A stretch of 64,000 nt of DNA. Source: Geosiphon pyriformis uo1. Its lineage: Eukaryota; Fungi; Glomeromycota. Of this stretch, positions 5,766 to 56,238 are shown piece by piece. The stretch covers positions 62,001 to 126,000 of the forward strand of contig JAAOMT010000599.1 in the NCBI GenBank assembly GCA_016748015.1. Reading direction: 5' to 3'. Each line of letters starts with the position of its first letter. The first letter of the stretch is position 1. Under the pieces are notes generated by a model, which made no database searches, was not told the DNA's origin, and saw nothing but the letters and a program-made list of their open reading frames with translations. A program made the translations under genes and the position numbers.

Positions 5766-5829
5766 AAACTTCTTTTAAATTTTGAACTTTTTTAAGAATT
5801 TAAGATGAAAAAGAGAAAGAAACTTATTA

Positions 5830-13009: not shown

Positions 13010-13443
13010 AATAAAATAGTTAATTTTATATGTTTTTGGTTTGGGTATTTTTTGGAATTATGTATTATTTATTATTATTTTGTGTTTTATTAAAAAAATA
13101 CTAATATTAAGAAATTAAATATTTAGGTTTAATTATTGTTTTATTACAACTATTGGTTTTAAATTTTAGGGAATATCTTCAGAATTAATTAAAAAAGAAT
13201 ATATACCAATTTGTGGAATTAATAATTTAAAATTGGTTTTAAAATAATGTGTTTTAATTAATTTATGTACAATTTTTGCTAAAATTTGGTTATTAAGTTT
13301 TAATTTATATAATTATTATTTAGAACCTTATAAATAAAAAATAGTTTATTTTATTTATGTTAGAATTTTTTACTCTATTGTTTTTCTGTCTTAGTTTTGT
13401 GTAAAAAAACTTTATTTTTAACTTTAAATTTATTGATAATTAA
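13010..13443 (-). pseudogene. Relic of an A-family Gypsy integrase C-terminus
   Basis: 13140-13300 aligns with 23585-23745 (gaatatcttc...taccaatttgtggaattaat). Confidence 0.75.
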
Positions 13444-16400
13444 TATTATAGGTAATTATTTAAGATATTGATACAAATAAACCCTTAATTTGGTGTTTAT
13501 TAATTGATAATTTTAATAATATTTGAAGATTTTGGTTGAGTTTTTTGTATAATAAACAGAGATTTAATTAATGGTTTTTTTCATGAATTTTTTTCTTTAA
13601 TATAATAGCCAGTTTATTCTAATAGTTATGTTTTTCTGGTAAGCTATTTTTAAATTTCTATTCTTATTTTTGGGTTTTTTACCAGACTTTCCTTAATGTC
13701 AAATACTTAACACTTAATTTCTTTTAATTAATTAGTAAACAACAAACAAATAAAACAAAAGAAAATAAAAAAAATTAAAAAAAAATTAAAAACAAAAAAA
13801 GAAAATAAGAAATTAGTATCTTATCAATAGCTATAATCAAAAGCTATTGGTTCAATATAGTTAAGTGTTAAATTCTATCAACATTCTATATTAATAAAAT
13901 AGAAGTGATTAATATTTTTTAATTAAGTAATAATAACATAAATTCAGATAATAATTGGTATTTTATTGATATGTAATTTAATTCCACTTTAGTTGTAAAA
14001 AACCACTTCTAAAGAGAAAGATATTGGATAATTAATAGATTTTAGCTAATTATTGGTATTGATTCTGTCTTTTTTGTTTTTAATATTCTTACTATATATA
14101 TATATTTTTTGTTATACAAAATCTTATATTTTTTTAAGTAATGTGCCCTATTTTCTTTAACAATATGCCATAATTTTTTAACAATATGCTTATTGCTAAG
14201 CAGTATACCATAATTTACTAATAATGTGCATATTGCTAAGCAATGTGTCATAATTTTCTAACATTGTGCTCTTTTACTAAGTTTTATTCTCCTATTGGTC
14301 TATTTTTCTATCTGTTTTTTCTACTTGTACTTTTTTTTATGAGTAATATTATCTTCTTCTTTAATATTGAGCTCCATCAAAATTTTTATTTTGAATTAAG
14401 TCTATCACTTCTTTTTCTAATACTGTTTGTTCAATTCTGTTTTTTATTTTTTTACTTTAAAAGTTGTTTATTTTTCCCTATTGGTTAACAGTTATTGTTT
14501 CTATTTTTTGGTGTAATAGTATTTTTGGATAATTTTGAAATATGGTGTGTAATTAGTAGATTGTTTTAATATATAATTTAGAATTTGTTTTTTTCCAATA
14601 AAATTTTCAATCTGTTATACTATTTTTTGATTGAATATTCTTTTGAATTTATTAATATATAATTCTTAAATATTTAGTTTTTGTTTTAACTAATAATAAT
14701 AATATAATATTAGAAGTTGTTCTATCTATAGCTTTCAGTTTTTTTTAGTTAACTTTTTTGTTAAAATTATTATTGGTATTTTTCCAATAATGTTTTTTAC
14801 TTTTTCAATAATTTTATCTAACCAGTATTTTGTTTGGTTCTGTAGTTGCTAGTATAGAATAATTTTTGCTTTTTTTTTGGTGTTTTGATAGCAAATTGTT
14901 TGATAATTGATAACAATTTCTATGTCTAATTATTGTTAATTTATGGCCTAAAATAATTGTTGAATTATTATGTAAATGTAATTTGGAATTTCTATCTTTT
15001 TTTGTTGCTTTTGTTATATATACTATGTTTTTTATATACTATTTTTGTAGATTAATTTGATGTGTTTGTGTTAATAATTATGATTGGTTTTAAATCTTGT
15101 GAAATCTTATCTAGTTGGATTAATATTTATTGTATTTTTAGTTGTAGAATATTATTAATAGATGATAATATTATATTGTGATATGGTTTTAGTTAATCTC
15201 TATATGCTGTTTTAGCTAAGATTTTGTTGTTCTATCTTAATTTATAAGCTTCATTTTCTAGAATTTCTTCAATATGAAATGATTTGTTTTATTTGAAGTC
15301 AAATTTTCCACTCTATTTTTTTTTGCTTTGGTATAATATAAAAGTACTTTGTCTCTAATTTTAAATTTGACTGGTTTATTTGGTTATTAGTTATTATGTT
15401 GTTTTTTTGTTTTGCTTGTAATCTTTGGATGTTATCAGCTGTTTTTTATTTTTGGTTTTCTAATGTTTCTATTAAGTTGTATGTTTTTTTTAGCAATGTT
15501 TTTTAGAAGTTGACTTCTGTTATTAGTTTTGTTGAATATATATTGATATCTATTTCAATTAATAATATTGCTGTTCTACTATAAAAAAATTCAAATAGTA
15601 TTGCTTATGTAGTATCTTGTTTTATTGTTTAATAAACAAATAATACTAATAATATAAACAAATTTTATTTATCCTAGTTTTTTTGGCTGATCTTAACTAT
15701 TGTTTCACACAATGTTTTGTTAAATCTTTTAACTAAGCCATTTGTTTATGAATAGTATAATAATAATAATAGTCTTTTGATTCCAAATCTTTAACTTAAT
15801 TCTATTAATGTTCTGTTTACAAAGTAAGTTCCTTGATTTGATAATAATTCTTTTGAACATCTATGCTAACAAATCAAATTTTGGTAAATAAATTTGGTTA
15901 TAAATTCTATATCTGTTCTTTGAATTGTTTTTGCTTTTGGCTATTTTATAAAATAGTTTATGATTATTGCTATATAATAATTGTCTCTGCTGGTTATTGT
16001 TAATAGTTTGACTAAATTAATTCCAATTTGATTAAATAGTTGTCTTATTTTAATTGGTTTTAGTGGTTTACTGGGTTTTGTTTCTCTTTTTCTTTAACAA
16101 GCATCACAATTTTGAACATATTAAATAATGTTTAGATACATAAATGGTCAATAATATTTTTTTTTGGTTCTTTTTATAGTTGCTTTTTTATGAAAATATC
16201 TTGTTGTTGAATTTAAGTGCATGTTAAATAGTATTGTTTCTTTTTCTAATTTTGTGATTACTTTGAGTGACTGATCTAGATATTTTTTATTCTTTTGGTA
16301 TAATATATTTTGGTATATAATAAAATAATTTACTTGTTGTTTTATGTTGTTTTGTTTCTTTTAAGATAATTTCTTCTTGAACTGCTAAGTATTAATATAG

Positions 16401-17450
16401 TATTAAAATTGTTGATGTTTTTATGTGTTCATTTTTTGTTATATTTTTGGGTTGAAATGTTTTTATATTTGTTTCATTTATGACAAACTATTAGCATTTT
16501 TATTTTTTTTTTATATAATATACAGTATATTAAATAGCAATAGTTCTATTTTCTATCTTATATGGCAATTGTCTCCAAATTTTTGCTTCTAGATTGATGT
16601 CAGTTTTTTGTGATTAGTGTACACATTAAACTTTTGACTTAAATATTTCTTTTATTTAATAACAGCTCAATAGATAGTTAAGTGTTTTAATGCTAGAATT
16701 TTATAGTTTTTTTTGGCTGGACTTAAACTTTTGCTGGCATATGCTATTAGATGTTCTTATTTATTTGCTCTTTTTTGTGACAATACAGCTTTTAATGCTT
16801 GACCAGATATATCAATGGTAATAATAAATAACTTGCTGTGATCTAAATAAATTAGTATTGATGTTTAAATAAGCTTTTTTTCTAAGATATTAAATGTTTT
16901 TTGTTGGATTTCAGTTCATTTATATTTCACATTCTTTGTTTAGAGCTGGTAAAATAGTTAAGCCAGTTTGGAGAAATTTTGGATAAAGTGGTAATAGTAT
17001 TCAGCAAATCTTAAAAATACTCTTAATTTTGTCAAATTTGTTGGTACTGAAAAGTTTTTAACTATTTTAATTTTGTCTGAATCTGTTTTAATGTTATCTT
17101 TGCTTACAATATGTTCCAAAAACTTGAATTCTGTTTTGCCAAAAAAATATTTAGTTGTATTTAACTTTAATCCAGCTCTTCTTAATCTTTTAAATATTTG
17201 TTGGAGATAATAAAAATAATTATTGAATGTTTTTGAAAACACATTAGTGTTATCTAAGTAGACTACTACTAATTTCTATAACAGTTCAATATAAACAATC
17301 TTCATAAGCTGTTAAAAAGTGGCTGGAGTATTGGTTAAGTCAAATGACATAATATTGAATTCGAAATTTTTTTTTTTAATAGTAAATGCTGTTTTTTTTT
17401 GTTGGCTGGATTTATAGCTACTTGCTAGTAATCATTATTTAAGTCTAATA
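13444..17450 (-). mobile_element. Gypsy element C (B-related): 3' LTR 13444-14348, ORF3 about 14360-14995, IN-RH-partial RT; truncated at 17450
   Basis: LTR start tattatagg corresponds to B tgttacagg; 14341-14385 corresponds to 43371-43415 (LTR end/PPT); RT ORF 16958-17242; collinear with 44000-46290. Confidence 0.8.
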
Positions 17451-18849: not shown

Positions 18850-21590
18850 ATTTATTAGGCTGTTACACAATTAACTTGATAAGCTTTGAAAACATAATTA
18901 CTTAAAAAAGGTATTAAAAAGTTAATAATAGATAATAGTTGTGATTTTATTAACAGATTTATATTTTTTAATGATCTGTTTTTTCACTTGTTACTGAAAT
19001 TAGTTTTCAAGTACCTAACAATGTTTTTTTAATTTATTTTGCTTTAAAAAAGTCTATTTTTTCATTTGTGCAATTTCACTAAATTTTTTTATTTTTTTGC
19101 TTAATATTTATTCATGGCCAATATCATAAAAAACACAATTAGAGACATTTGGATTTACAAACTGTGTTTTTTTTATCTGAACTCGAAATTAATTTAATTT
19201 AGCAATAAAGCTAAAATATGTACAAGACCTGTATATTTTACTTTTAGAATATTTGATGACATTAAAAAAGTTAATATGTAATCTCTCAAATTTGATACAG
19301 CTACATATTGCAATTTCTCAATATTGTTGTAAAGGTGTAAAAGAAATCAATGATTTGAGCATTTTGTTAAATTTTTCAAGTATTGTATTATAGTTTTGAT
19401 GTTGATTTAAAAGTTTAGATCAAGAAATTACAATTCTTTTTTGAATCAGCTTGCAAACTTCAGGCTTTAATTGTAGTCATTGTTCTTTATTAGCAATTTC
19501 AATTAATTGGTAAATAAGATGGTGCTGAGCAGACTAAATTGGTGCAAACATTTGTTTAGCTACAAGTCTTAATAAAGACCTATTAAAACAAATTTCAGTG
19601 CAAAAGTTAATAATTGCTTGTAAATAAAAAAAGACTTGTTTATACTTTAATCTGAATATGAGATTTGTTTTATTTTGGGCCCATTCTAAGTAATCTTCAA
19701 CAGATAAATTTTCTTTAGAAACAATATATAACTACATTAATTCAAAAGTCATTGCATACCTATATATATTATATATCAAATCTCATAACTTATGATAATT
19801 AGAACATTTTTTAAAAAACTATAGTTAACTTTTACTTCGATATTTCTGACATTGTGCAAAGTATTTTATATCAATATTTTAATTTAGCTTAACAAATGCT
19901 TTTAGCATATTTATCTCTTTATGAAGAGCACTCAGAACCAATATAAGCCAAAAAAAGTTTTTTTGATTGTTTGTGCACAATAATAAAGTACTCTATTATA
20001 TGTTACTACAACTCATTTGTGGCTATTATCTTTAATACAAAAACCTTTTGAATATTAGCAATTAAGTTTGGATTTATGGCTATTGGATCAGAAACATATA
20101 ATTGCAGTATATAAATCTCAATTTTCAGATACAATTGTGCATTTTCAAATATATAAGAATAAGAAATGGGTTTTCAGTAATGTTAACTGATTTATTCAAT
20201 TGATTTATCTCAGTAATTGTTGGTAATTTGTTACAACATGCAGAACAAACTTGCTTCTTATTATCAATGTTAGACAATTAACAAGCTGGGGATTTTTTTA
20301 GAGAACCAATTTGGCTTTGATGTTGTATTAATTCATTAATTATATTTGTTTCTTGACTTTTCTCTACACAAAACTTTTCTAAAATAATAATAAGATAATT
20401 AATAAGTTCTTTATAAATTTTATTTATCATATCTGAAGTTAAAAAAAATAATTTCTCATATTCCTTTTTGGAAAGTTCAAAATATAACCAAGGATCTATA
20501 TTTTGAATATTATTAATTTGATTATAATTAAAAACAACAAAATTTATAATGATATTAAATATAACTGTATTATATCTACAATCTAAGTAATTTTTTTGAC
20601 TTTTTTGTTCATTGTCAAAGACTAAAAATAAAAATCTTTTGTGAAGCTTTGACTGTTCTATAGTCAAACTTTCTAATCAGTTAGTAAACTTTTTATAACA
20701 ACCAGAACTTATAATATAATTATCAATATTAATGACTATTTTCGATCTTACTATTAAATATTTGATTGCTGAAGTGGCTAAATTAATAACAAAAACATAT
20801 TTTAAGTGCCTTAATTCATATATAGCATTAACTGCTATAGCATACTTAAAAAGTTTTTCTCTTTTATTTTGATATTTATTTTTATTATAAATAAGAGTTT
20901 TAATAAATTTTATAATAACTGAATTTTATTTTGCAAGCCATATTAAAAAACAATACTCTAAAAGACTATCTAGATTAAAATGGTCATAATTTTTTTTAAA
21001 ACTTATTATATTATTATACAAATTATTTTGTTCTTTTTTGGAAATTTCTGTTATGAATTTAATATGATCCTGTTAATTATTAAATACTTCATGTAATTGC
21101 TTTTTAATGTTACATTTTCAGATAATAATTGTTGATTAATATTTTTTAGCTCCTGTATTTGTTTTATATAAACTTTATATATTGGATCTAGCAAGAATAT
21201 TTGGACTTCAAAATCAAAAAAAGTTTTTTCTAATTCTAATAACTTGTTATCATTAGAAAATCTTGGTCTTTTTCTTTCTGTTTTTTTTAAATCTAAAAAA
21301 GTTGAATCATTTGATTTAATAATTCGTTTAATAAAAGACTTTTTAACAATAATCTAATTATAATGTCTTTCACATAAAGAGTAATTGTTTAGAGAGTTAA
21401 GTAATATAGTTAATCTAGAAAAATACTTGATTATTTCTGTTATTTTTTTTGTTACAACACTAGCTAATACATGTCACTATCTTTAATTTTCTTTGGTTTT
21501 ATATTTTACTAATTGACTTTTATTATATTCACTGATAAAAAATTCAAATAAATAGGGTAAGTCTTTGACATTTATTATAAAGCAAGACAT
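18850..21590 (-). pseudogene. Putative DDE transposase pseudogene (Academ/DUF6589-like)
   Basis: ATG at 21590; LCERHYN; VFDNEQ; Cys ribbon; VVVTYNRVLY (from VTCDGVPY); LVLSALHKEINMLK (from PGALHEEMNMLK); NYNTILEKFNK (from GxDAILEExNK). Reconstructions use only C>T/G>A reversal; family assignment is from motif recall. Confidence 0.6.
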
Positions 21591-21761: not shown

Positions 21762-22745
21762 TATTACCAGAGGTTTTTGGTCTCTTTTCTTGAATGTTGT
21801 TAATGTCTGTTTGTTGTGAATTCACGTTTTCAGAAAGTAGTTGGATCTCCAGTAACTGAATTTATCTTCAAATTATCTCCTATAATTTGAACTTGCTGGG
21901 CTTATGAGTGGAATGGCCAATTCCATGCCAGTTGCTTTATGTAGTTATGTTGTAGTAAACATCAACTCTTTCCCAAGAATTGCTCATCTGAAAGCTCACT
22001 AAAAATGTGTAGTTACTTTGCTGTGAAAGTCAACTCTTCTACAAGAATCTTGTCTGTAGGCTACCCTAATGATTGTAATAAGAAAAAATAAATAAATAAA
22101 TAAAAGAAATGTAAAAGAAATAGGATTTTATCAAGAGAAACGTTTTTCTATTCAGGCCTGAAGTCACTAACAGTTTACTGAAATTGGTAGCTAATCAATT
22201 TCAAAATGTTAGTTGGGTTTTGGGGATTTTCCAAGTGCAATAATTAAAGAATTTGATTTTTTGAATTATTTGATATTTATTTCTTTTTGTGTGTGTAGGA
22301 ATGGTTCTAAGTGATAAATCTAAAGTAAGATACATTTTCTCAAAGTAAGATGCTCTTCTTTTATACAACTTGTCGTAACACTATTCTATGAACTTGAACT
22401 TTGCTATTTTCTACAATTTCGCTAAACTAAAGATACATTTTGGCAAACTACAAGTTATTTCTGCAAACTATTAAATATTTTGGTGAACTATCAATTATTT
22501 TGGCAAATTTCTACAAATTTTGGTGAACTTTTGAATGTTACATAGTTCAGGGTATTGCATAATTGATCATTGCAATTAGATTATATTTGTGTTGTGTACA
22601 AATTGGGTTATTAATTTAAATGATAATTTTGGACATTTTGCTAATGTAATAAGTGATAATTTGAAATGATAATATATGCTAATTAATGATAGGATTTATA
22701 AGATAATTTCATGCTAAATAATATCTCTAATTTCATTTGATAACA
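21762..22745 (-). repeat. 3' LTR of element A
   Basis: Direct repeat of 30664-31647; contains a ~20-bp tandem array (attttggcgaacta-like) at about 22430-22530. Confidence 0.97.
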
Positions 22746-23433
22746 TAATCTCCTTCTCAAGACTGAGCTCCGTCAAAGTCCAAGTACTGTCTGTAATTTC
22801 CAGATAGTAATCCAAAATTATTGAAAAAATTTGGTCTGAAAATTGTTGAAATTTCAGTTCTGTAAGCTTTTCAATGTATTGAATCTTCAAAGGTCGTAAA
22901 ATTGGGTTTTGTAGGACATTTTCACAGGTGTGAAATAGGTCATAAAGTCTAAGAGCAGCTCTGAACTTGTAGTGACTGTTTGTTGGTCCAGCTGTTGTCT
23001 TGAATTCATTGCAGAGTTGTTTTTGAATAGCTTCTTTTGTGAGGTTTGCTGTTGTAAGTTCCAGTTTCCATTCGTAGAGTGTTTTTCCAATGTGGAAATA
23101 TCTATAGATTGGAGAATATTCAGTGTTTTCTTCATTGAGACACAGTTGAAGTCTTTGTTGAATTGTAGCATTTGGTGGAATACTAATTGGAGTGAGCATT
23201 AGGTTTTCTCTTAAAGCAAACTTTAAAAGTTCTGGGAGGTGAATTCCAGAATAACTTCTTGTGTTCTTCTTATATGGGTAATATTTTTGTGAATTTGGGG
23301 CTAAATTTGTAACTACTTCTGTTTGGGTATAATTAATGTGGTTTCCAGTAACAGTAATAGATAATTTGGGTATTGTTTTTAAAGCTAACATTAGTTTTTG
23401 GGATAATTGTTAAATGTTTTGAGGAATAGTCAT
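22714..23433 (-). pseudogene. ORF3 of element A, uncharacterised protein of about 240 aa
   Basis: ATG at 23433 in frame with the 225-aa ORF 22714-23391 (one intervening TAA); homologues at the same position in B, C and D. Confidence 0.8.
22746..22760 (-). promoter_or_regulatory. Polypurine tract of A
   Basis: Minus strand GAGAAGGAGATTA immediately before the 3' LTR. Confidence 0.8.
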
Positions 23434-26400
23434 TATAAGAGATTTGAAATAAAAGAAAATTATTTTTGGTGTATGGGTTTTTATGTTATTTTTTTTTTTT
23501 CTTTGTTTTGTTTTTGGTGAGATTGTTTCTAAATTATAAGAGAATAACTAGTAAAATTAAATTAAGTGTTCAGGTTGGAAGATTGTTCAATGACAACTAT
23601 TGGTTCTAAGTTTCAGAGAATATCTTCGGGATTGACTAAAGAGGAATGTGTACCAATTTGTGGAATTAATGGTTCAAAATTGTTTCTGAAATGATAGTGT
23701 TTCAAATGATCTCTATGTGCAACTTTTGCTAGGATTTTGTTATCAAGTCTTAGCTTGTATGATCTATTGCCTAGGACTTCATGGATAAAGAATGGTCCAT
23801 CCCATTTATTTTCAAATTTTCCACTCCATTGTTTTTCAGCTTTAGTTCTGTGTAAGAGAACTTTGTTTCCAATTTTAAATTCATTGGTGACTGGAGACAA
23901 TTTGTCATCATGCCATTCTTTTTGTCGAGCTTGGGAGTGTTCAATATGGGTGGCTGCTATTCGTCGTTTTTCTTCCAATGTGCTAAGCAGAGTGTAGGCT
24001 TTTCGCTGAAGCGTTTCTTGGAAATTGTTTTCATTGATTGGTTGTGCTGAGTATGTTTCTACTGTGAAACTAATTGGTAATGTTGCTGTCCTTCTGTAAG
24101 TTAAATTAAATGGTGTGTGTTTTGTGGTATCTTGTTTTAGTGTTCTGTATGCTAACAACATTGATAGAATAAAGATATCTCACTCTTGCTCAAAATTGGT
24201 TAAGACTTTGGCTAATAACTCATACAATGTTCTGTTAAAATGTTCCACAAGTCTGTTTGTTTGTGGATAGTAGGGCAAAGACAGAGGTCTTTTGACATTA
24301 AATCGTTTGCAAATTTCTTGTATTAGGTTGTTCACAAAGTGTGTCCTCTGATCGGATAAAAGTTCAATTGGACATCTATGTCTACAAATGATGTTTTCAT
24401 AGATGAAATTTGCTACTGATTTTGCATTTGCTCGTTGAATGGCTTTGGCTTTGGGCCATTTAGTAAGATAGTCTACAGCTACTGCAATATAATGGTTTCC
24501 TTGAGTGGTAATAGATAGTGGTCTGACTAAATCAATACCAATTCAGTCAAAGAGTTGTCTAACTTTGATTGAATTTAATGGTTCAGTAGGGTGTGTTTTT
24601 CCTTTTCTTTGACAATTATCACAAGATTCAACATATTCATGAATGTCTTTTCTCATTTGAGGCCAAAAGTAGTATTCTAGTGTTCTTTGGATGGTGCTAT
24701 CTTTTCCGAAGTGTGCTGATAAAGGATCTAAGTACATGTTGTATAATATGGTCTCTTTTTTCTGTTCTTGTATTAATCTGAGTGGTTTGTTTGAGTTTTT
24801 GAAATTTTGATAATAAATAATGTTGTTGTGTAGAAAATATTGTTTGGCTTGCTGTTGTAGTCAATGTTTTTTATCTAGAGACCAATCTGTTGGAATTGTT
24901 AATATTTCCAAATATTGTTTGAGATTGTTATAGTTTTCTGAATTCATTGTTTGTTGGCTCTTTTGGTTGGTTAAGTTGAGTGTTGGTTTTTGTGTTTTCT
25001 AATCTTGTCTTATTCTGGAGAGACAGTCAACATTGGTGTGGAGTTTTCCTGGTTTGTGATGTACTATGTATCAATAGTTTGCTAGAAATCCTGTCCATCG
25101 GGTTTGTTTTGCATTCAGCTGAGTATTTTTGTTTTGAAGCCATTTGAGTCTAATATTATCAGTGATAATATCGAATTTTTTAGGCCTGAAATAAAAGTTG
25201 AAGTGATGTAGGGCCCAAATTATGGCTGCTGTTTCTAGTTCTGTGGCAGAGTAGTTTTTCTCAGCTGGTTTTAATGTTCTGCTAGCATAAACAATTACTC
25301 GCTTATTTCCATTGTCATCTAATTGTGATAAGATGACACCAAAGGCAGTATACGAAGCATCTGTAGCTAGTCGAAATTGTTTGCTGAAATCTGGGTAAGC
25401 GAGGATTGAAGCTGTTGTCAGTTTTTCTTTGAAAATTCCAAAAGCTTTTTGGTGTTTGGTAGTTCATTTGTATTCAACGTTTTTGGTGGTAAGCTGGTTG
25501 AAGGGTTTTGTAATTTTCAAGAATCCTTTGATAAACTTCCGATAATAGGATGCTAATCCTATGAATCCTCTTAGTTCTGTAGTGTTTTGAGGAGTTTTGA
25601 AGTTTTTGACAATGCTGATTTTTCCAGGGTCCGGTTTGATTCTATCTTTACTAACAATATGACCAAGGAAGACCAGGCTTGTTTTTCCAAAGTAGCATTT
25701 TTTGATGTTGAGTTTTAGTCCTGCTTTTTGTAATCATTGAAAAACTTCTCACAGGTGTTTTAAGTGTAATTCGAATGATGGAGAATAAACATCAGTATTG
25801 TCAAGATAAATGACTACTGACTTTCAAAGGAGTTCTTGGTACACAACATCCATTAATCTCTAAAATGTTGCTGGTACATTGCATAATCCGAAAAGCATTA
25901 CATTGAACTCGTAATTTCTGTCTTGGGTGATGAATGCTGTTTTGGAGTGATCTTTGGGATCCATAGCAACTTGCCAGTAACCGCTTTCTAAATCTAGTGT
26001 TGAAAAATATTTGGATTTTCTAAGGGCATCTAACATGTTATCAATTTGGGGAAGGGGGTAGACATCTCCAATTGTAACACTGTTGAGTTGTTGATAATCA
26101 ACACAAAATCGGATCTTTCCATTTTTCTTTTTAATTAGCACTACAGGTGAAGCCCAAGAACTCATGAAGGGTTGGATGAGCCCATTGTTAAGCATTTGTT
26201 GTACTTTTTTTCGGATGAATTGGTGGCTTTCTGGAGCAATTCGATATGTTTGTTGTCTTCTTGGTTTGGCATCTCCTGTATAAATTTGGTGTTGGACCAA
26301 ATTGGTTCTTCTTAAGTCATTGTTGTTTTCAGCGAAGATATCGGCAAATTCTATAATTAGCTCTTTGAGCTGAATCTGTTGTTGTGGTTTAAGTTGTCCC

Positions 26401-26839
26401 ATGTTGATTCAAGATAGTTTTTCTATAACAACATGGTAGTTTTCGGAGCTGGGGTTTGGGTTGATTTTTGGTAGTGAATGTCCAATAATTTCAGAGAAAT
26501 CAGGGACTGTTTGGGGTAATTCTTGTTGAAATATATTATTGTAAATAACTCCAATTTCTAAATTATTTAATAAAATTATGAGGTAATTATTGGGGTTGTA
26601 AAAAGTAACTCAGACTTTCTTTGTTTCTTCTGGAATATAAATGTTTGGGATCTAAATATTATGTTTCAAGCAGACTTGTTCATTGGACTCAAAAATTTGT
26701 TGTGTGGTTGTTGGCTTTGGGCAGGTGTAGATTTCTGGATGTTCTCTAAAGGGTGAGATGGTAATTGGTTGTGGAAGTCTGAGAATCTGGTGGGATTCAT
26801 TCTGTATATTAAGAGCTATATTAACTGGAACTGTGAATC

Positions 26840-27240
26840 GTCCAGTTGAACCAAAATTTTGGGTTCCTCTATCGCTTTTTCCTAATTGTTCTCTTTGATT
26901 GACTAGTTGCAAACCCAAAATGTTGATTAAGGGTAGATAAATAGCTTGGGCAATTTTTTCAGCATGTTTGATCTTGAATGGTTTGTCAGTTTCATTTTAA
27001 AGCATCACTGTAATGTCTCCAGTATATCCAGCATCAATTATTCCTCCTCTGACATTGATTTCTTTGCTTGCCAAAGAGGACTGGGAGGTGATTTGAACCA
27101 TTGCTTCTGGCGGAATTTCGAGTGCAATTTTGAGGTTGATTTTTGTGAGAGATTTGGGTTTGAGAACAAGAGTATCCTTGCTTGGATATCTTAGGTCATA
27201 TCCAGCATCAATTTCATGTGCTTTTTCGGGTTTTATTTCT
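26840..27240 (-). pseudogene. dUTPase domain within pol of A
   Basis: All five trimeric dUTPase motifs: DAGYDL, SQSSLA, GIIDAGYTGDI, EKIAQ, RGTQNFGSTG. Confidence 0.92.
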
Positions 27241-30200
27241 TGTCCGTTGTTGTTGAAGTATTTAAGTTGTAAGGCAGGCTGATTTTTAATAAGGTAGATG
27301 GGTGTTGTTTCAATTTCTTCCATTGCTTCAGGTTCTCCAAATTCAATTTTATTCTCATCATTTTCGCTGGGCAAAGGGATACTAAGAGCATAGCATTCAG
27401 GACACCACTGTTCATCACAAGGCATAATGCATTCTTCACATAGTCTAATGTTTATTTGCTCTAATTGTTGAATTTGAGCTTCTTGGGTTGGGTAGGTGTG
27501 ACTTGCAATTTGGTGGTAGACTTCTACTTCGTCTTTGTAATCGAATTCAGCTAATTCTATGATGTATTCAATGTATTCTGCTTTCTTTATTTGACAAACA
27601 TCTTTTTTGATAGCTCTATTAATTAATGCCATTGCTAAGTCGAAAATCATTTCGGCATCATGGGGGTAGTGATAAAGTTTGTTGAGAGCACTGTTGTATG
27701 CTACATTAAAGAGTGTTTCTCTTTTTACTTTTTCTGAAATTGATAAAGCATATTGGCAGGTCTGATTGCAGACTCCTCCTCTCATGGCTACATCAATCCA
27801 ATTGCATTCTTCCGGTAGCATATCTTCACAAGTCAAACAAGGAGTGTTGTCTCATTTTCCGCTTCTTTTTATTAGATGGCCCCATTATTCTCTGTGGCAA
27901 GCCTTGCAGTAATAACAAGTATGATTTTTATATTCTTCTTCAGGTAAAATGCAGGCTCCCATTAACAATAGTTTCTTGTGGTAGTCTTTACATTTAAGGA
28001 GAATATAGGGGTGTTGTTTCCTTGGTTCAGGTTTTGAGTAAGGGATATTCCATCCAGAGGTTTCAGATTCAGAGTATGAGGTAAAATGTTCTTGTTCTGT
28101 TTCATTGGCCCAGTTGGACGTTGATCCAAGAGCCATGAATGTTTCAATGAGGGGTTTTTCCTCTTCCAGTTTGAATTCAAAAGCCAGGGTTTTTTTAGAG
28201 CATTTGTTGAATGTACTACAAGTGGCAGGTACCCAGGCGTGTTGTTCTTGGTAGGAGATTGTTAACTCTTGTGTTTCTCAATTCAGATTAGCATTGGCTT
28301 TTTAAAGCCAATCATTTCCGATAAGAGCTTAGTACTAGGGTGCATCCATTACAAAAACTTTGACTGGAATGGTAATTCCATCAAGAGTGAATGGAAAATT
28401 GTCAATTTCTTCTACTGGGGTCTTTTTCATGCCATAGGCAGTGATGATTATTGTTTGAGCTGATTGGTCGACATTTCTCTTCAACTGTTGCATTAACTGG
28501 TAGATAATAATGCTTCTGGCAGATCCACTGTTTAGGATCAAGTGAATTGTCTTTTCTTCGACTTCTGCTTCAATGTATATAGCCATGATTGCTTTTTGTT
28601 TATTGGTGGCTGCATTGCTAAGCAGGAATGATGACTCATTTGCTTCAAACTCAAAAGGGAATATATCTGAAAGGTTAGTGTTTTCAGCAATTCTGGCTGA
28701 TGAGATTATGGTGAGAATATAGGAAGGGTTTTGTTGTTGTGCTGCAGCTCTACCTTCCGAGAGTGCTGTATGGTAAAAATCCTGTTCTTCTGGCATTGTT
28801 AAATAACTGGGTTGAGTGTGGTAGTGGTTGGGTCTTGGTTGAATGGAATTTCGGGGAACTAATTGGTTGTTCGAACTGATTCTATTGTTGTTTACTTGGT
28901 ACTGGTTTTGTGGTGTGAATTGATTTTGTGTAATCAGTTTTCAAGCAGGTACTTGATAATGTTGTGTGGATGGTTGTTAGTATTGCTGTTGGATTGGCTG
29001 TAGAGCAGACTGATAATAGTTATTTTGGTATTGGGGTCTTGGTGGATAGTAAGCTGGTGGTGGTGGTTGATAATAAGATTGCTATAGTAAAGGGTAACGT
29101 TGATTACTCCTATTTTGTTGGTCTTGTTGTAGCTTTCTGCAATCTCTTTTCCAGTGGCCAGAGATTCCACAGTAATGGCAATTCTGAGGCTGGTTATTAG
29201 AAAGTGGTGCAAAGTTATTTTGATTTTGTCTTTGGGGTGGTTGATATCTTTGGGGTTGCTGTTGTTGTTGATTGGTGAAATAGTTTTCAACCTTCTTTGT
29301 GAGTTGGTCAATTTTTTCCTCAGCTGCTAAGCTGGTTTTTCCAATTGCCAAATTTACAAGTTTTGTGCAATTGGCCTCTTCTATGGCCATTTTGTATCTT
29401 TTTGCATGCTGTATGGCAGAGTTTAAATCTTCTGGCGCATGTGAGTGAACCTTTTTAATTAATTTATCTTTTAGACCAGCAATAAATTGATCTAAGATTT
29501 GAGCATTGGAATAATAATTATTTGTTTCAAGTTGGCAAATTTGTCTGAGAAGTTTGTTGAATTTCTCGATATAAGTCATAACAGATTCGGAGGGTTCTTG
29601 TTTGATATTTCAAAAACGATTTTGAAGGGTAATGAAGGTATTATTGTCGGTGAACTGTTCAAGGAAGGCTGCTTTGAAAGCGTTCCAATCATTGAATGGG
29701 GCGGCCAAGTTTTCAAATCATTCTCCTGCTGTTCTTTTGAGAAAGTAGTGAATTGTTTTTAACATTCTGGCAGCATTCCATCTATTTGCATCTCCAGCTT
29801 TAGTAACTTGGTCAAGCCATTCTTGGGGACTGGTCTCAATGTTTTTTCCATTAAATTCAGGGATTTTTGCAATGTATGTTGTCATTTTGTCTTCTTCATT
29901 TTCACTGTCTATTGATTCTTCTTCAGATATTTCAGGTTCGTTTTCTTTGTTCACTGCTGTCTCAAAGTGTTCACTTTGATTTTTAGCTAGAAAGTCAAGG
30001 AGATTAGAACTAGTTTGAAGGGGTTCTTGTTGTCTGATGGGACTTCTGAGTGATGTAAAATCTTCTGGTCTTGCAAATCAATTCAAAGGTGAATTAGTCA
30101 TTTGTGCTTGTGCAAGTGAAGCTGGAAAAGGTGTGATAGTAAGTGGAAGTTTTGAACTGGTTCCTTGTTCAGGTGTTTGTAAATGTTTGGCAGTTGTTTT

Positions 30201-30650
30201 TGGTAGTGTTGGAGTATTTGGGGTGGTTTTTGAGTCTTGTTTTAATTTGTTTTTGTCTTTGTTGCTTGTTTCTGTTTTTGATTCAAAATCAATAAAGTAT
30301 TGAGACTGCACTGGATATGTTTTTTCACAGTATTTGATAATGTTAAAATTAAGTTTGTGAAAGTAAGTGGCAAGTGTTTTGCTATTAAGGTTTTCAGTTC
30401 CCAACTGTGAATAGTGTGCTAAATTATTGTAAAGGTTGCTTCTAACTTCTGAGATATTGTAATTTCCAAAAAGATAATTGTTAATGTGGTTTTCAATGTA
30501 TTGGTATACTGATTTCTTGACAACTTCAATTCCGTCTAAAATGTTGAATCTTTGCTTGCAGTGGGTGTAAATTGATTGGTAATACTCTAGAGTTGTTGCG
30601 TCTGGTGTGATTGCCACTTTGAATTTTGTTGTTGCTGTGTTATTTCTGTA

Positions 30651-30661
30651 GGAGAGCACCA
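30651..30661 (-). promoter_or_regulatory. Primer-binding site of A
   Basis: TGGTGCTCTCC, 2 nt inside the 5' LTR, complementary to a tRNA 3' end ...GGAGAGCACCA. Confidence 0.85.
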
Positions 30662-30663
30662 AA

Positions 30664-31647
30664 TATTACCAGAGGTTTTTGGTCTCTTTTCTTGAATGTT
30701 GTTAATGTCTGTTTGTTGTGAATTCACATTTTCAGGAAGTAGTTGGACCTCCAGTAACTGAATTTATTTTCAAATTATCTCCTATAATTTGAACTTACTG
30801 GACTTATAAGTGGAATGGCCAATTTCGTGCCAGTTGCTTTATGTAGTTATGTTGTAGTAAACATCAACTCTTTTCTAGGAATTGCTTGTCTGAAAGCTCA
30901 CTAAAAATGTGTAGTTATTTTGCTGTAAAAGTCAACTCTTCTACAGGAATCTTGTCTGTAGACTACCCTAATGATTGTAATAAGAAAATAAAAAAAATAA
31001 AATAAAAAAAATGTAAAAGAAATAGGATTTTATCAAGGGAAACGTTTTTCTATTCAGGCCTGGAGTCACTAACAGTTTACTGAAATTGGTAGCTAATCAA
31101 TTTCAAAATGTTAATTGGGTTTTGGGAATTTTCCAAGTGCAATAATTAAAGAATTTGGTTTTTTGAATTATTTGATATTTAATTTTTTTTGTGTGTGTAG
31201 GAATAGTTCTAAGTAATAAATCTAAAGTAAGATACATTTTTTCGAAGAAAAATGCTCTTTTTTTATACAACTTGTTATAACACTATTCTATGAACTTGAA
31301 CTTTGCTATTTTCTACAATTTCGCTGAACTAAAGATACATTTTGGCGAACTACAAATTATTTCTGCAAACTATTAGATATTTTGGTGAATTATCAATTAT
31401 TTCGGCGAATTTCTACAAATTTCGGCGAACTTTTGAATGTTACATAGTTTAGGGTATTGCATGATTGATCATTGCAATTAGGTTACATTTGTGTTGTGTA
31501 CAAATTGGATTATTAATTTAAATGATAATTTCAGATATTTTGCTAATGTAATAAGTAATAATTTGAAATGATAATATATGCTAATTAATGATAGGATTTA
31601 TAAGATAATTTCATGCTAAATAATATCTCTAATTTCGTCTGGTAACA
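30664..31647 (-). repeat. 5' LTR of element A
   Basis: Direct repeat of 21762-22745, same length. Confidence 0.97.
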
Positions 31648-31721: not shown

Positions 31722-32544
31722 TAATATCATAATATAAATTATTTCTTAATTTTTTATTGTTGTGTATGTTTATGTACTTCTTCTCAGAAATTAAACTGAA
31801 ATTTACTCACTGTCTAAGATTTTTTTTGAAGCTATCTTTGCAATTTTCTAATATGTTTTTCTAATTTAGAAACATAAAATATTAATAGTCTTTAGCACTT
31901 TTCTTAATTTTCACAATAAAATTTTTATTAATTAGTAACAATGTGAATAATCTTGATCGTAAATTATTTTTCCAAGGAATTTAGCTAATAAATAATAGTT
32001 TCATTTAATAAATAATACAAATAAGTTTCTTAATACTTTAGATTATAATTATTCAGTTTTTAATATATTTTTTTATTTCTTTTTGATTAAAAATTTTTGT
32101 GAATATTTATTTTAAAAGTAAAGACTAAAAAATAATTAAAGTAGAACTGTTGAATAAATTGTTTAATAACTTGTTTTTATGATTTGTTAGATGATATCAT
32201 TATTTTTCTTAATATTAAAGCTACTATATATATACATATTTGTAGTTCTATAAAAAAACACATTATAATACTTTCTTTTTAGTATTTCAATCTGGTGTTT
32301 GTTACTATTACCAGTTGGTATTGACTACTATTATTAGTTGGTATTGGCCATTATTACTAGTTGGTATTGGTTACTATTACCAGTTAGTATTGGCTGCTAT
32401 TATAAACTAGTACTTACTATTATTGCAAAATAGTGTTTGCTATTATGTTAATTATTATCTTTCTAAGATTATTACTGTGCTATATTATGATTGGATAATT
32501 TATATTATTTTATGATTTTTTTGCTAAATTTTTAAACTGTAACA
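31722..32544 (-). repeat. Partial LTR of another family (E)
   Basis: Aligns with about 58520-59251; ends aaactgtaaca. Confidence 0.75.
32301..32410. repeat. 23-bp tandem repeat, 4-5 units, inside LTR E
   Basis: agttggtattg core at 32313, 32336, 32359 and 32382. Confidence 0.9.
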
Positions 32545-35500
32545 GTGTTTTATAAATATTGTATATAATAAAATTCTCTGAAAATTAATAATAGTGTACT
32601 TAAACAATATTAATATATTCTCAAAAATGTTCAATAACCATTTGCTTAACTTCCAACAAATTTTTAATTATCTTTAAAGTGCTAGACTAAAAATTAATCC
32701 AAACAAATACTTCTTTAAAAAGACTAAACTAAAATTCCTAAAACATATAATAAGCAAAAATAGAGTAAAACTAAATTCTAACAAGATTTAAAAAATAAAC
32801 TTTCTGGTTTTAACCAATCTATGTAAACTAAAAAGATTCTTAAGACTGGTTAAATACTACTGTAAATTTGTTAAAAACTTTTTTAACATTGCAAAACAAT
32901 TTCATTATTTGCTGTTAAAACATATTCTGTATCTATATAAAAAAAATAGTAAGAAACTTTTGATTATCTTAAATAACACTTAATAGAAGTACTAATATTG
33001 ATTTATTCAGACTTTAATAAATGCTTTATTGTTATTATAAACATTTTAAAGAATATACTAAAAACCATTTTGTCACAAATCAAATCAGACAATAAGAATA
33101 TTCAATTACTTATACCAGTTACAATACTAATACAGTAAAAAAAATATACAGTATAACTAATTTAAAATGTCTTATTATTTACTAAGTTGTACAAAATTGA
33201 AAACATTATTTTTGCCAACTATTTAACTTATGTACTGATTACAAAAAACTTATTTGGTTAATTAGCAAATTACAACTTAAAAGAAAATATGCATAATAAA
33301 GTATTTATTTGTAATAATTTTTATATAAAGTATATTATAAGAAAAAAGCCAAAAACACTAATATTAACAATTTGTCAAGAATAATACAAATCTAAACTTA
33401 TGAATACAATCATTTACTAATAATTATATCAGTATTTATTAACACTTTGGTTTAAAAAAAAATTATCTCAACAAAAACAAAGTATTATATGAAAACAAAA
33501 TCTCAATAATTTTATTCAAAACAATCAACTATACTATTAAGAATGTTAAAACTGCACTATTTTATAATAAATTATAAAAAACAATAAAAAAGAAACTATT
33601 TTGCATGACATGTATTTTGATTTAACTACAGAACACTTTAACAAAGATGTTACTTTGAAAAAAACAATAAATCTATATTATTGGTTAATAATGTATAAAA
33701 ATATTTTTGAATATATTTTTAACTATAACTTATGTTAATAAAGAGAAAAAGCCAGAATAATAAAACAATTTTAACTCATTTTAGTGAAAAATATTTTTAA
33801 TAAAATTAGAATTAATTTGATTGGTTTTTTTTTAATTACATCTAAAAAAATTGCTATATTATTGTAACTATAAACTATCTTATCAAATGGTTTAAAATTA
33901 GAGCTATTCAAATAGCAAATGTTAAAACAATAGCCGAATTTGTATATTAAAATCTGATTTGTTAATATAAATGTTTGAAAAAATTATTATTTGACCAAAA
34001 AACTTATTTTATCAATAATATGCTAATTAAACTAAGCCAATAATTCAGAATAAAACAATCTTTATTGTCACTTTATTACCTATAAACAAATAAACTAATA
34101 GAACAATTTAACTAAACATTATGTAAAACATTAGCAAAAATAAATTATAAAAATCCACAAAAATAAGACTTATTTATATCTTTTATATTATTAACATATC
34201 AAATATTAAAGCAAAATACTACCTAGTTTATATTATTTGAACTAGTTTACAGAAGAAAAACCACTTTACTTATTGAACAAAAAATATTTTTTTTCTTAAC
34301 AAAACAATTACTAAAGAGAATTTTGAAGCTATCTTATATTAGAAAACATACTAATTTATGAAAACATTAAAAAACAATTATAAAACAATAGCTAAAAATA
34401 TTAATAATACTTAAGAACAATAGAAAAAAAAACATAATAATTACTTATCTAATCAACCAGTTGAATTTAAGATTAAAAACTAAGTATTATTATATTATAC
34501 TAAGCTAAAAAACAGTGAAATAAAAAGTTTGACTTAAAATGTGATGAACTATTTTATATACACAAAGTTTTAAACAATAAAGCTTATAAATTATAATTAA
34601 AAAACAGAATTTTAAAAAAATAGCACATAGAAATTGTTTAAAAATTTATTATACAAACCAAAAGTTATTGTTATTTGTATCTTAATTAGAAACACAGATT
34701 TTATTAATCAGACCAGAAAATATACTATAAGATCTAGAACCAATTATTATTATTAAAATATAATTAATATATAACCATTTAATTAAAAAATTCAAATATA
34801 TATAAAAACCAAGACAGCAAAAAAAAAGTTGATAGTATTCTCAACATGGATCTTTTAAATCAAATTTTAAGACTTTCAAAACAACTATTTGAAGCAATTC
34901 AACAATTTACAATATCAATAGAAATTATAATTAATAGAAAAAAGTTACAATACAAAAATTTGCACAAAAAAAAAAGAACAAGAATTTAACAAAAACTAAG
35001 CATTTCTATTTCTTTGATTAATCAAAAAAAAAAAAAGATTGTATATGCTTAACAAAATTAAGAAAGCTTTAAATAAGCTAATTATAGAACTAATAATAAG
35101 AAAGTAGACACCAAAAACCTTTAAAGCATGGAAAAAAAGACTTTTACTAGTATATTGATTTTTTAAAATTGGTAAAAAACTTGATCTTCAAACATTATAT
35201 TTAAATACTAACAAATAAATATTCAACAGAAAAGTTCTGAAATAAATAGAAAAATTCATTAAAAGAAATAATCTAATACTGTATTACAAAGTAACATATT
35301 AATTGTATTTAGTATTTAAATATTGTCCAGCAATACTGTTAAACAATTCACTAAAGTTGATTACAGTTAATAATATAAAATGAATAATAAATACACAGTT
35401 TGAAAACCTACAAAAAACAATACCTGACACAATAATTGAATATTATACTAAAAAAACAATTTTTACAGATATATACGATTTTACAAAAGCTTAAAAAGAA

Positions 35501-36399: not shown

Positions 36400-38432
36400 T
36401 TAAAGATTTATAACTCTAATACATCTTATATATCTATAAAAAAAATTCCAAACTTTTTATATCTAAACTTAAAGCACTAAATATTACTATTACAACTTAT
36501 TAAGTTTACTTATAATACTGTCAAATTGTTTTTATAATAGTAACAAATATAAGTTTTATATTTTTTTTTGGTAATATACAAGCTTTTATTAAAAAAAGCT
36601 TTTTGCTATAATTCTTATATTTGAGTAAAATGTAAACAAATTATTTCTTAGATTTCAGTTTTAAGTATAAAACATACTAACTGTTAACTGGTTTTATTGT
36701 AAAAATAAATTATTGACTAATTTTTTTAAACCATAATAATATTTATTATAATGTAAATATTTTAAATAACTGTTCAGTTTTTTCAGCTCAATCAGATTAA
36801 AAATTAAGTATTATATAAGTTTTAATAATTGGAAGAGTTTTTTTTTCAAATTCAAAAACTTGGGCTTTTTTTGATTATTTGTTGAAAATATTATAAGTAG
36901 TTAATATTTTAATATATTGTTTTTAGTAAAAGATTTTTGGTTTTTGTATTTCTCAATCTAAGTTAATATTGGCTTTTAAAAGCCAGTTATTTTTAATAAA
37001 AGCTTAGTATTAAGATATATTTATAATAAAAACTTTAATTGAAATAATAATTTCATTAATTATAAAAAAAAATTGTTGATTTTTTCTACTAATGTTTTTT
37101 TTATATTATTAATAATTACAATAACTGTTTAAGCAAGTTAATTAACATTTTTTTTAATATTGTATTAACTAATAAATAATAATATTTCAATGAATTTATT
37201 ATTTAAAATCAATTAAATTAATTTTTTTTAATTTTAGTTTCTGTATACATAGCAATAATTGCTTTTTGTTTTAAAGTAATTATATTGTTGAGTAAAAATA
37301 GTGATTTATTTGCTTTAAATTCGAAAAAAAATATGTCTAAGATGTTAATATTTTTAGCAATTCTTGCTGGTCAGATTGTAATATTATTATGAAAAAAGTT
37401 TTGCTATTATGCTATAACTTTACTTTTCAAAAGTACAGTATAATAAAAATTCTGGTTTTTTGGTATTATAAAATAACTAGATTATATATAAAGATATTTA
37501 AATAGTTATTAATTATTATTGTAAAGTACTATTTGATTATTGGAATTAATTCTGTTGTAATTTGGTTAAAAACAATTTTTAAACTAAAGTTTTAATGAAT
37601 AATAGATAAGTAGTAATAAATAATATAATTACTATTGCTAAAAAAAATATTATTAATTATTCTGTTTTTGTTGATTTTTTTGTATTTTTCTGTAATCATG
37701 TTTTCAATTTTTAGGAATTTTACAATAATGGCAGTTTAATAATTAAGATTAATTGTTGAATAAAAAAAAGTTTTTTTGGTTTTGGCATTGAAATGGTTGA
37801 TATTTTTGTTAATTAATAAAATATGTTTTAGCTTTCTTGGTAAGTTAATCAATTTTTTTTAATAATTAAACTGGTTTTTTTAATTACAAAGTTGACAAAT
37901 TTGGTATGATTGGCTTCTTTTATAGTTATTTTATAGTTTTTAGCATATATTATAGCAGTTAAATCTTTAAGTATATATAATTAAACTTTTTTAATAAGTT
38001 TATTTTTTAGTTTAGTAACAAATTAATCTAATAGTTAAACATTTAAATAGTAATTATTGCCTTCTAACTGTCTAATTTTTTAAAAAAATTTGTTGAATTT
38101 CTTAAGATAAGTTATAACAAATTCTGTAAATTCTTGTCAAATATTTCAAAAGTGATTTTAAAGAGTAATTAAGATATTGTTATTAGTAAACTGTTTAAAA
38201 AAGACAGATTTAAAAGTTAACCAGTCAACAAAAAATACTGCTAAGTTTTTAACCTATTTAGCTATAGTTTTTTATAAAAAATAAGAAATTGTTTTTAGCA
38301 TTTTGGTTGTATTCTATCTATTAGTATTTTCAACTTTAATAACTTTGTCAAGCTATTCTTGAAAACTGGTTTTAGAGTTATTTCTAAAAATTTAAAAAAT
38401 CTTTATAATATAAATAGTAGTTATTTTTTATG
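36400..38432 (-). pseudogene. Old A-like element F, left part (capsid-protease-Cys-rich relic)
   Basis: 37250-37470 aligns with 28570-28800; 37840-38400 aligns with 29290-29870. Confidence 0.75.
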
Positions 38433-42547: not shown

Positions 42548-43378
42548 TGTTACAGGTGACTATTTCTGGTGTTGGATTAAAGAACAAACCTGTAACTTGA
42601 TACTCAAATCTAGTTGCAGTTGATAGTAGTCTGAAGATTTGTGTCTGAAAGGTTTGTATCTGAAGGGTTTGATTGAGTTCTTTGTATAATAGACAGAGAT
42701 TCAATGGTAATAGTTTTATCTGTAGCTTCTCAAAACTGCAGTTTCATCAATTTTTTTCTCAGCTTGATGGCTGGTATTCCTCCTGGTAAGCTATCTTCAA
42801 TCAAGTGTTCTACCCTTATTTTTGGGTCTTTTACCAGTCACGTTTATTCTAATATCAGTATCCTGTGCATTAATCCTCAATAGAGTTAGTAAACAACAAT
42901 AAAATTAAGGCAAAAAATAAAGAAAAAAAAAGAAAATAAAGAAAGAAAAGAAATAAGCTAAGGCGATTTGCAAGTTAGTATTCCATCAATAGCCATGATC
43001 AAGAGCTATTGTTCCAGTGTGGTTAAGTATTAATTACTATCAACATAAAGTGTTAATAGTGGCAATAGGTTTGAGATAACAAACAGTTATTTATTTGTGG
43101 TTTGGAAAGTTGTCTAAATAAAATCTAAACAGAGAGATCTGTTTTTTTAGCTTCTAATCTTACTGTTATATATACATAATTGAGATTTCTTAATTCCTCA
43201 ATTCTTCACAACAGGAATCCTGGAATTCTGGAATCCTGTAATTTCTTATAAGAATCTTGTAATTCCTGAAATCTTGCAATTCCTGAGAGGAATCCTGGAA
43301 TTCTATATTTTACTATGTCTACTTCTGATTGGTTAATAACTATGCTAATATATATTCTCTATATTTCTATGAGTAACA
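42548..43378 (-). repeat. 3' LTR of B (831 bp); PPT AAAAGGAGAGAATAA adjacent at 43379-43393
   Basis: Direct repeat of 51603-52473. Confidence 0.97.
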
Positions 43379-43379
43379 T

Positions 43380-44021
43380 TATTCTCTCCTTTTAATATTA
43401 AGCTCCGTCAAAATCTAACTCTGTTAATTCCTCTTCTTAAAGTATTTCCTAAATTTTATTTTCAAGAATTACTTGTGTTATTTGAGTCTGTAATTCTTCA
43501 AATTGAGTATTGGTAATCTTTCCTAATTGATTACTGATAACTGTATCTATTGCTTTATTAAGTAAGATTTCTGGTCAATCCTGAAATGCTATGTGTATTT
43601 GGTATATGGCTCAGGCCTGTGTGAATAAGTTGTTCTTTCCCACAAAATGTTCTAATTGTTGTAGTATTCTTGTGTCAAATAATTGCTTTGTTTTATCCAT
43701 ATATAAATTCTAGATATTCATGTGTTGTCTCAAGTAAAAATAACAATAGTTTCTTGGAAATTGTTATATTCACCAATTCCAAGTTTCTTTAGTCAAGTTT
43801 TGGTATAGTGACTCTTTTGTCGACTCTTTTATTGCTAATTTTACTTTCACAATGATTTTGTCAATGGTATTTTCTGTTTTCTTCTGTGTTCTATATGGCG
43901 ATGTCTTTCTAGTGTCTTAATATTGGATGGTTTATTGATTAATTGTAATTTTTATCTCTTGGTGTTGAATCAATTGAAAGAGTTGTTGTACTAGTGAGTA
44001 GATGTTGTCTGTAATTTCCAT
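43380..44021 (-). pseudogene. ORF3 of element B
   Basis: ATG at 44021; MEITDNIYSLVQQLFQLI...NYCYFYL...AIYQIHIAFQD*PEILLN...LGKITNTQFEELQTQI; stops and a frameshift. Confidence 0.75.
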
Positions 44022-51602: not shown

Positions 51603-52473
51603 TGTTACAGGTGACTATTTCTGATGTTGGATTAAAGAACAAACCTGTAACTTGGTGCTTAAATCTAGTTGCAGTTGATAGTGGTCTAAAAGTTTGTGTC
51701 TGAAAGGTTTGTATCCGAAGGGTTTGGTTGAGTACTTTGTATAATGGACAGAGATTCAATGGTAATAGTTTTATCCATAGCTTCCCGAAACTGCAGTTTT
51801 GTCAATTTTTTTCTTAGCTTGATGGCTGGTATTCCTTCTGGTAAGCTATCTTTAATCAAGTGTTCTACCCTTATTTCTGGGTCTTTTACCAGTCATGTTT
51901 ATCCTGACATCAGTACCCCATGCATTAATTCTCAATAGAGTTAGTAAACAACAATAAAATCAAGGCAAGAAATAAAGAAAAAAAAGAAAAATAAAGAAAG
52001 AAAAGAAATAAGCCAAGACAATTTACAAGTTAGTATTCCGTCAATAGCCATAATTAAGAGCTATTGTTCCAGTGTGGTTAAGTATCAATTACTATTAACA
52101 TGAAGTGTTGATAGTGGCAGCAGGTTTGAGATAACAAACAGTTATTTATTTGTGGTTTGGAAAGTTGTCTAGATGAAATCTAAACAGAAATGTCTGTCTT
52201 TTTAGCTTCTAATTCTATTGCTATATATACATATTTGAGATTCCTCAATTCTTCAATTCTTCACAACAGGAATTCTGGGATTCATGGAATCCTGCAATTC
52301 TTTTGAGAGGAATTCTGGAATTTTGGAATCTTGCGATTCCTTGTAAGAATTCTGTAATTCCTGGAATCCTGCAATTCCTGAGAGAAATCATGGAATTTCA
52401 TATTTTACTACATCTACTTCTGATTGGTTAATAACTATGCTAATATATATTCCCTATATTTCTATGAGTAACA
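51603..52473 (-). repeat. 5' LTR of B (871 bp)
   Basis: Direct repeat of 42548-43378 plus one extra 40-bp unit in the ggaatcctg array. Confidence 0.97.
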
Positions 52474-53177
52474 CCACCCAAACCCAAAGACACAGAAACA
52501 GCTCTGTGATTCATATCAAAATGTTTACTGACAATAAAAACATTGTGCTGCATTATTGTATTTACCAGATTCGAGAAAACAAACACATAATTAATAGTCT
52601 TTGCAACACTCTGAGAATTGCTCCAAGTTGGTGTCTTAGTAAAGAAGCTCCCACCCAAAGAATTAACCAAACCCAAATCATGGCACTTTTTAAAACTAGT
52701 GCACTTATAAGAGCCATTTTTGTTGAAATCACCACTAAAAATAACAAAAAAAAATTCATTCATAGTCCTCGCAATCAAAGAATTGATCTCATTAGCCTGG
52801 AAAAATTGAGTAGCCAAGAAGGCACCAGCATACAGTCCCAGAATCGAAACCAAAAGTTTATTCTTGAAAAGTAACCTAATACAAAGAAGATGATCTGGGA
52901 CCTCAGAAATCTTATATATATGCTTAGCCAAAGATCTGTTCATAACAATTGCGATACCAGCATCCACATAGCCAGAGTCCAAACCAAAAGAAAACATGCA
53001 AACATCATTAAATTTGTCAACTAACCAAGAGCAAACTTTATTTTTTAACTTTGTTTCTGTGAAAATTAAAACCAAATTGTCTATATCTTTATGTCATCAA
53101 ACAATATCATCCTGTTTCACAGGAACATTCATACCTCTAACATTACACATAGCAACTTTCTACACAAGATTACTTAT
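52474..53177 (-). pseudogene. LINE 2 ORF2, 5' part (APE endonuclease)
   Basis: CNVRG, FTETKL, SGDFNKNG, TWSN..TINYVF, FDMNHRAV. Confidence 0.9.

Positions 53178-56175: not shown

Positions 56176-56238
<63 letters not shown>

Follow-up and report, generated by a model that had tools for sequence, protein, structure and literature searches.

What is the third open reading frame (ORF) that follows integrase in divergent Gypsy elements of the fungus Geosiphon pyriformis, and why would these elements keep it? The question is raised by a 64-kb stretch of contig JAAOMT010000599.1 (64,000 nucleotides, positions 62,001 to 126,000; hereafter the window, from whose first letter all coordinates are counted), which is AT-rich and packed with decayed retroelements. 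Four of these elements, A to D, had been proposed from the letters alone to share such a gene, here called ORF3. Our results support ORF3 as a real, selected and apparently undescribed accessory gene family of a dUTPase-bearing fungal Ty3/Gypsy lineage. Its copies in the window, with the spacer that precedes the first, are the following.

22714..23433, minus strand: ORF3 of A, 239 codons; a dead copy with one TAA at codon 8, its final 32 nt within the 3′ long terminal repeat (LTR)
23434..23612, minus strand: A/T-rich spacer of A, from the pol stop to the ORF3 ATG
43392..44021, minus strand: ORF3 of B, 209 codons; a dead copy with many stops and no frameshift, ending before the polypurine tract (PPT)
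14364..14995, minus strand: ORF3 remnant of C, frameshifted, with many stops
34846..35461, plus strand: ORF3 remnant of D, frameshifted, with many stops

A hidden Markov model (HMM) built from family-B siblings matched B at 44021-43395 (independent E-value, iE, 2e-114), C at 14995-14364 in two frames (iE 1.2e-21 and 7.2e-14) and D at 34846-35455 in two frames (iE 9.8e-4 and 4.9e-21). The starts given in the original prediction (23433, 44021, ~14995 and 34846) proved exact, and the sequence blocks said to be shared among the four proteins are present. The claim that each element carries an ORF of ~210-240 codons did not hold, as none of the four copies is open: the matched segments contain 15 stops in C and 9 in D, both of which are frameshifted, and B has 11 stops before the end point first assigned to it. 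All four copies in the window are therefore pseudogenes, a point that the original prediction had missed.

Protein similarity was further said to persist across families with unrelated LTRs. The similarity is significant: profiles of A and B align colinearly over 181 columns with 22% identical residues (hhalign probability 88.7, E 2.6e-6), and BLASTP of the two proteins gives E 2e-7; tblastn with ORF3 of A alone returned no significant match to the others (best E 0.075, to D). The LTRs are indeed unrelated between A and B, for which nothing better than E 0.35 was obtained, but not between C and B, whose 3′ LTRs are 68% alike over ~400 nt (E 7.7e-27).

Intact copies exist outside the window. 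ORF3 of A has 203 matches, and among the 120 listed, 119 belong to Geosiphon pyriformis, the remaining one being the product encoded in the window itself; 23 of these 120 are exactly 239 aa long. All 102 relatives of ORF3 of B are from Geosiphon, a 209-aa form among them, as are the best 120 of 418 matches in a further word-index search. A sister subfamily of A, A′, has 235 aa and ~66% identity to A. When 1.84 billion representatives were searched with a profile, 115 matches were obtained at E up to 1e-3, of which 19 were looked up and comprised 16 Geosiphon and three metagenome proteins. In all, nine ORF3 lineages with 12-67% identity were recovered, with support for the clades A/A′ and B/C/D/E. 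On one metagenome contig, L001, the reverse transcriptase (RT), RNase H and integrase are 53% identical to those of A, and a T-rich spacer separates pol from an ORF3 that is intact over 230 codons and is followed by the start of an LTR; the gene is thus not confined to one assembly. Relatives were not found in metagenome contigs searched with a two-clade pattern, in viral contigs searched by the PPT motif, or in GTDB genomes, phages or plasmids (for plasmids, E 2 only), and two short matches (per-genome E 9e-4 and 4e-3) in a sample of 201 genomes from a single bacterial phylum were taken as chance.

Many Geosiphon protein models annotated as hypothetical (P0124-P0224, P0235-P0327) represent copies of ORF3 that are either interrupted by internal gaps or fused to adjacent repeats, the gaps being likely false introns around stops. 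Roughly 300 "hypothetical" protein clusters of this species are thus copies of one retrotransposon gene, and the orphan gene count is inflated accordingly.

The gene is under purifying selection. ORF3 on an A′-type contig of run X2 differs from that of A in the window at 43 sites; of the 37 that are listed, 23 fall at third codon positions and 23 are synonymous, giving a ratio of non-synonymous to synonymous rates (dN/dS) of 0.084, which would rise to ~0.12 by hand arithmetic with the six unlisted sites all counted as non-synonymous (one was later seen to lie at a third position). In unguided DNA alignments, codon position 2 is conserved over position 3 between B and C, between B and D, and in the core of A and B; the same comparison for the core of A and D was not significant (p 0.05). 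Deamination alone does not explain this pattern, because transversions show it too. Fixed differences between A and A′ are more conservative than under neutral simulation, singleton changes look neutral, and the constraint on ORF3 is weaker than that on integrase. A dN/dS of about 0.08, which is not near 1, and the significant cross-family alignment bear out the prediction of a selected accessory gene.

ORF3 of A was also said to run over the PPT into the 3′ LTR in the manner of lentiviral nef. The features concerned are these.

22763..22780, minus strand: pre-PPT DNA motif common to A, B and C; A-type and B-type tails read it in different frames
22746..22760, minus strand: PPT of A, within ORF3
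21762..22745, minus strand: 3′ LTR of A, 984 bp, 93.8% identical to the 5′ LTR, with a 4-bp target duplication, GTGT

The crossing is real: A-type ORF3 stops 32 nt (10 codons) into the LTR throughout family A, and a similar tail occurs in A′ and two metagenome relatives. A frameshift artefact can be ruled out as its cause, since 23 siblings and L001 share the overlap. The parallel with Nef was nevertheless rejected. The B-, C- and D-type proteins terminate immediately ahead of the PPT and read the same pre-PPT motif in another frame; the A-type tail is therefore best taken for a side effect of a cis element that is conserved. Nef resembles ORF3 in size (about 210-240 aa) and in crossing the PPT, but the ORF3 overlap is short, clade-specific (absent in B, C and D types) and lies over DNA conserved as a cis element. 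Nef carries an N-terminal Gly2 for myristoylation; the full-length representatives of the ORF3 families have another residue at position 2. Nef had no sequence match to ORF3 among PDB chains, and its core fold was not among the ORF3 fold-search matches, although such searches do not exclude it.

As to what the protein is, a hydropathy scan over 19 residues in 10 representatives, used in place of a dedicated signal-peptide predictor, reached a maximum of 1.29 and revealed no signal-like N-terminus, in agreement with the predicted lack of the signal peptide or transmembrane segment that would mark an envelope (Env) protein. No known family was matched in Pfam, PHROGs or PDB sequences, consistent with the family having gone unrecognised at first sight, and ESM Atlas, Foldseek (PDB and viral) and VIA also gave no usable family. 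ORF3 has its own N-terminal start, conserved in the families for which the N-terminus was recovered. A first model of the B protein, from a two-clade alignment, was discarded (pLDDT 44.9). The N-terminal part is predicted to form a small helix and two strands. Residues ~80-205 are predicted to fold into a helical core, whose putative DNA-reading unit consists of one helix, a turn with the conserved pattern GxxN and then a basic helix. Nowhere are A and A′ better conserved than in this putative reading helix; its first residues differ between families and its later residues are common. A large family of hypothetical Glomeromycota proteins may share a helical pattern of this sort.

The core is predicted to be remotely like DUF1016_N and ParB-type domains. 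The Pfam gathering cut-off for DUF1016_N (PF17761; 32.8 bits) was not reached, the best match being E 0.12 in one of 33 ORF3 members, and the domain was not listed for eight further members. In small targeted sets, hhalign of DUF1016_N against ORF3 gave E 0.0026 (probability 11%), and reciprocal HMM ranks favoured DUF1016_N in a consistent register, with clean reversed controls. The family alignments used 18 of 30 loci for DUF1016_N, 17 of 24 for DUF3102, 27 of 30 for HTH_ParB and three of six for KorB, loci with stops or cut by contig ends being excluded. Direct profile comparison of ORF3 to ParB and KorB gave no match. The weak relatives of the core are DNA-associated families; DUF1016_N has been called an unknown helical domain (PMC1189080), and its DNA binding is itself only inferred. 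ORF3 also differs from DUF1016_N (the N-terminal domain of YhcG), DUF3102 and HTH_ParB in its extra N-terminal domain, and it has neither a fused PD-(D/E)XK nuclease nor a ParB N-terminal domain.

A candidate target for such a protein lies in the LTRs. Every family has a cluster of short repeats near the LTR start, with a unit that differs among A, B, C, D and L001.

31319..31429, minus strand: repeat array in the 5′ LTR of A, a 10-mer present six times with a spacing of 20 bp; candidate array for ORF3 to bind
52249..52397, minus strand: repeat array in the 5′ LTR of B, seven copies; unit unrelated to that of A

Counts of clustered repeats in the 5′ LTR of A, both LTRs of B, L001 and D were matched by none of 60 shuffles, those in the decayed 3′ LTR of A by four of 60 and those in C by two of 60; this clustered test was chosen after the whole-LTR count, which was not significant for A, had been seen.

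One explanation, which we hold tentatively and at somewhat less than an even chance, is that the ORF3 protein binds the LTR array of its own family and promotes transcription or counters methylation. Translation of ORF3 would start at its own ATG, on an RNA that is subgenomic or spliced; the protein would enter the nucleus, and the helix whose first residues differ between families would read the 10/20-bp array in U3. Transcription would thereby be raised or methylation countered, in parallel to the action of VANC proteins on VANDAL transposons. This explanation draws on the observed position, homology, purifying selection, solubility and LTR arrays, and on a predicted fold and predicted relatives. 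Family-specific arrays and a helix start that differs by family are what would be expected of a family-specific DNA reader, and both the predicted helix-turn-helix-like core and the arrays would suit the earlier suggestion that ORF3 is possibly a transactivator or silencing suppressor. It must be weighed against this that repeat arrays of such a kind are common in LTRs. A broader scenario, improbable when taken as a whole, is that an old fungal LTR lineage captured a bacterial-type DUF1016_N/ParB DNA-binding domain and that each family's ORF3 activates or un-silences only its own copies through the LTR array; such a system would be VANC-like but independently evolved, and it might have driven the expansion of Gypsy elements in Geosiphon.

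One may postulate alternatives. ORF3 could be an RNA-handling factor like CERV or Rev that binds unspliced genomic RNA and exports or chaperones it; we consider this unlikely, given that ORF3 has its own conserved start where CERV is a spliced gag fusion, and that the weak relatives of its core are DNA-associated. Somewhat less likely is that ORF3 counters host defence, such as RNA silencing, by binding proteins, its helical fold being unrelated and its likeness to DUF1016_N due to chance: the fast divergence between families, the lack of a significant fold match and the production of transposable element (TE) small RNAs by arbuscular mycorrhizal fungi (10.1101/2021.03.30.436303) would suit it, but the DUF1016_N signal, which is reciprocal, consistent in register and accompanied by clean reversed controls, and the conservation of the putative reading helix between A and A′ would not. 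Doubtful, and ranked just behind, is a role in integration or reverse transcription, as a cofactor that binds DNA or chromatin and tethers cDNA ends or picks target sites; ORF3 would use the same predicted core, an SH3 domain and no chromodomain follow the integrase of A (Pfam), and the target duplications of both complete insertions start with GTG, yet two insertions are too few for a target preference and ORF3 diverges much faster than integrase (31% against 70% identity between A and L001). Finally, an Env-like protein or non-functional relic is very improbable, for although ORF3 occupies the env position and every copy in the window is broken, the hydropathy scan contradicts Env identity, and the low dN/dS, together with the intact siblings and intact metagenome copy, contradicts a neutral relic.

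The self-activation that we tentatively favour would act within elements of the following structure.

23613..30665, minus strand: gag-pol of A, one frame with capsid, CCHC, protease, Cys-rich insert, dUTPase, RT, RNase H, integrase and SH3
30664..31647, minus strand: 5′ LTR of A, then a TGG motif resembling a primer-binding site (PBS)
42548..43378, minus strand: 3′ LTR of B, with a 4-bp target duplication, GTGG
51603..52473, minus strand: 5′ LTR of B, 86.6% identical to the 3′ LTR
15178-17395, minus strand: pol remnant of C, upstream of its ORF3 remnant
32552-34727, plus strand: pol remnant of D, upstream of its ORF3 remnant

A and B are complete Ty3/Gypsy LTR retrotransposons with paired LTRs, target-site duplications, PBS and PPT, and gag is followed by protease, RT, RNase H and integrase (by Pfam in A and tblastn in B); C and D are 5′-truncated, with no partner LTR within the window. 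The integrase cores of all four share 48-68% mutual identity. In A, gag and pol occupy a single frame of ~2350 codons without a frameshift, now interrupted by 27 stops. A dUTPase lies between protease and RT in both A (27000-27230) and B (47026-47790), both on the minus strand (Pfam E 1.8e-9 and 2.8e-12); it goes unmentioned in parts of a survey of fungal LTR elements (PMC3248453). The Cys-rich insert of A, ~250-300 aa between protease and dUTPase (about 27400-28277, minus strand), has a counterpart in B and no Pfam match in its scanned portion. Both target-site duplications are 4 bp, and their common start makes a target preference possible, on two insertions only. Differences within LTR pairs are nearly all transitions (54 vs 7 in A, 75 vs 4 in B), also outside CpG, reflecting strong C-to-T decay.

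Elsewhere in the window, decayed LINE-like non-LTR elements (702-5774, 38569-42452, 52440-54706 and 59346-63743), 65-70% alike, match RT and, weakly, RNase H. Further A-related fragments comprise SH3/spacer (13093-13435), gag-protease (36554-38379) and a partial LTR with gag start (55294-56231), none with an adjoining ORF3 in the HMM search. A 132-codon open frame beside the insertion site of A (20278-20676, minus strand) has no Pfam match below E 0.03, and a repeat pair (31722-32542 and 58518-59249), 73% alike, contains 23-bp tandem units.

Our literature search, from which most subscription papers were absent, found no publication linking DUF1016_N or DUF3102 to retroelements and, with repeat databases also outside its scope, none on ORF3; elements carrying it may be in the supplementary TE libraries of PMC11952901. 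Descriptions of fungal LTR elements usually give gag and pol and no more, according to one survey (PMC3248453), and a striking LTR expansion has been reported for Geosiphonaceae (PMC11952901), for which ORF3, if it is indeed a self-activator, would offer a mechanism.

Like ORF3, the third ORFs of other Gypsy elements keep the same position and orientation, occur in most copies of a family and are maintained by selection, and rotifer lineages likewise pair a dUTPase with varied ORF3s. Those described so far, in plants and animals, either resemble Env or encode enzymes (GDSL esterase, DEDDy exonuclease), whereas the Geosiphon protein is fungal, soluble and without a Pfam match, with a predicted helix-turn-helix-like core. 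CERV of Caenorhabditis elegans Cer1 is a 517-aa protein spliced to gag-frame exons, restricted to nematodes and active in RNA export (PMC10309623); by description, ORF3 differs from it in size, in having its own start, in range and, on the reading favoured here, in role. VANC proteins of VANDAL elements act on their own family through a short tandem motif (PMC6719617, PMC13547354), and the LTR arrays provide such a motif in the element that encodes ORF3. The likeness, that of an element-encoded accessory protein with a short tandem motif, is a functional model only, since VANDALs are DNA transposons of dicots and VANC has a MAIN-like fold, for which ORF3 has no Pfam match. Most extra Gypsy ORFs have no known function; among them, ORF3 can be delimited as one family under selection, for which there is a confident model and, as candidate DNA targets, arrays that vary from family to family.
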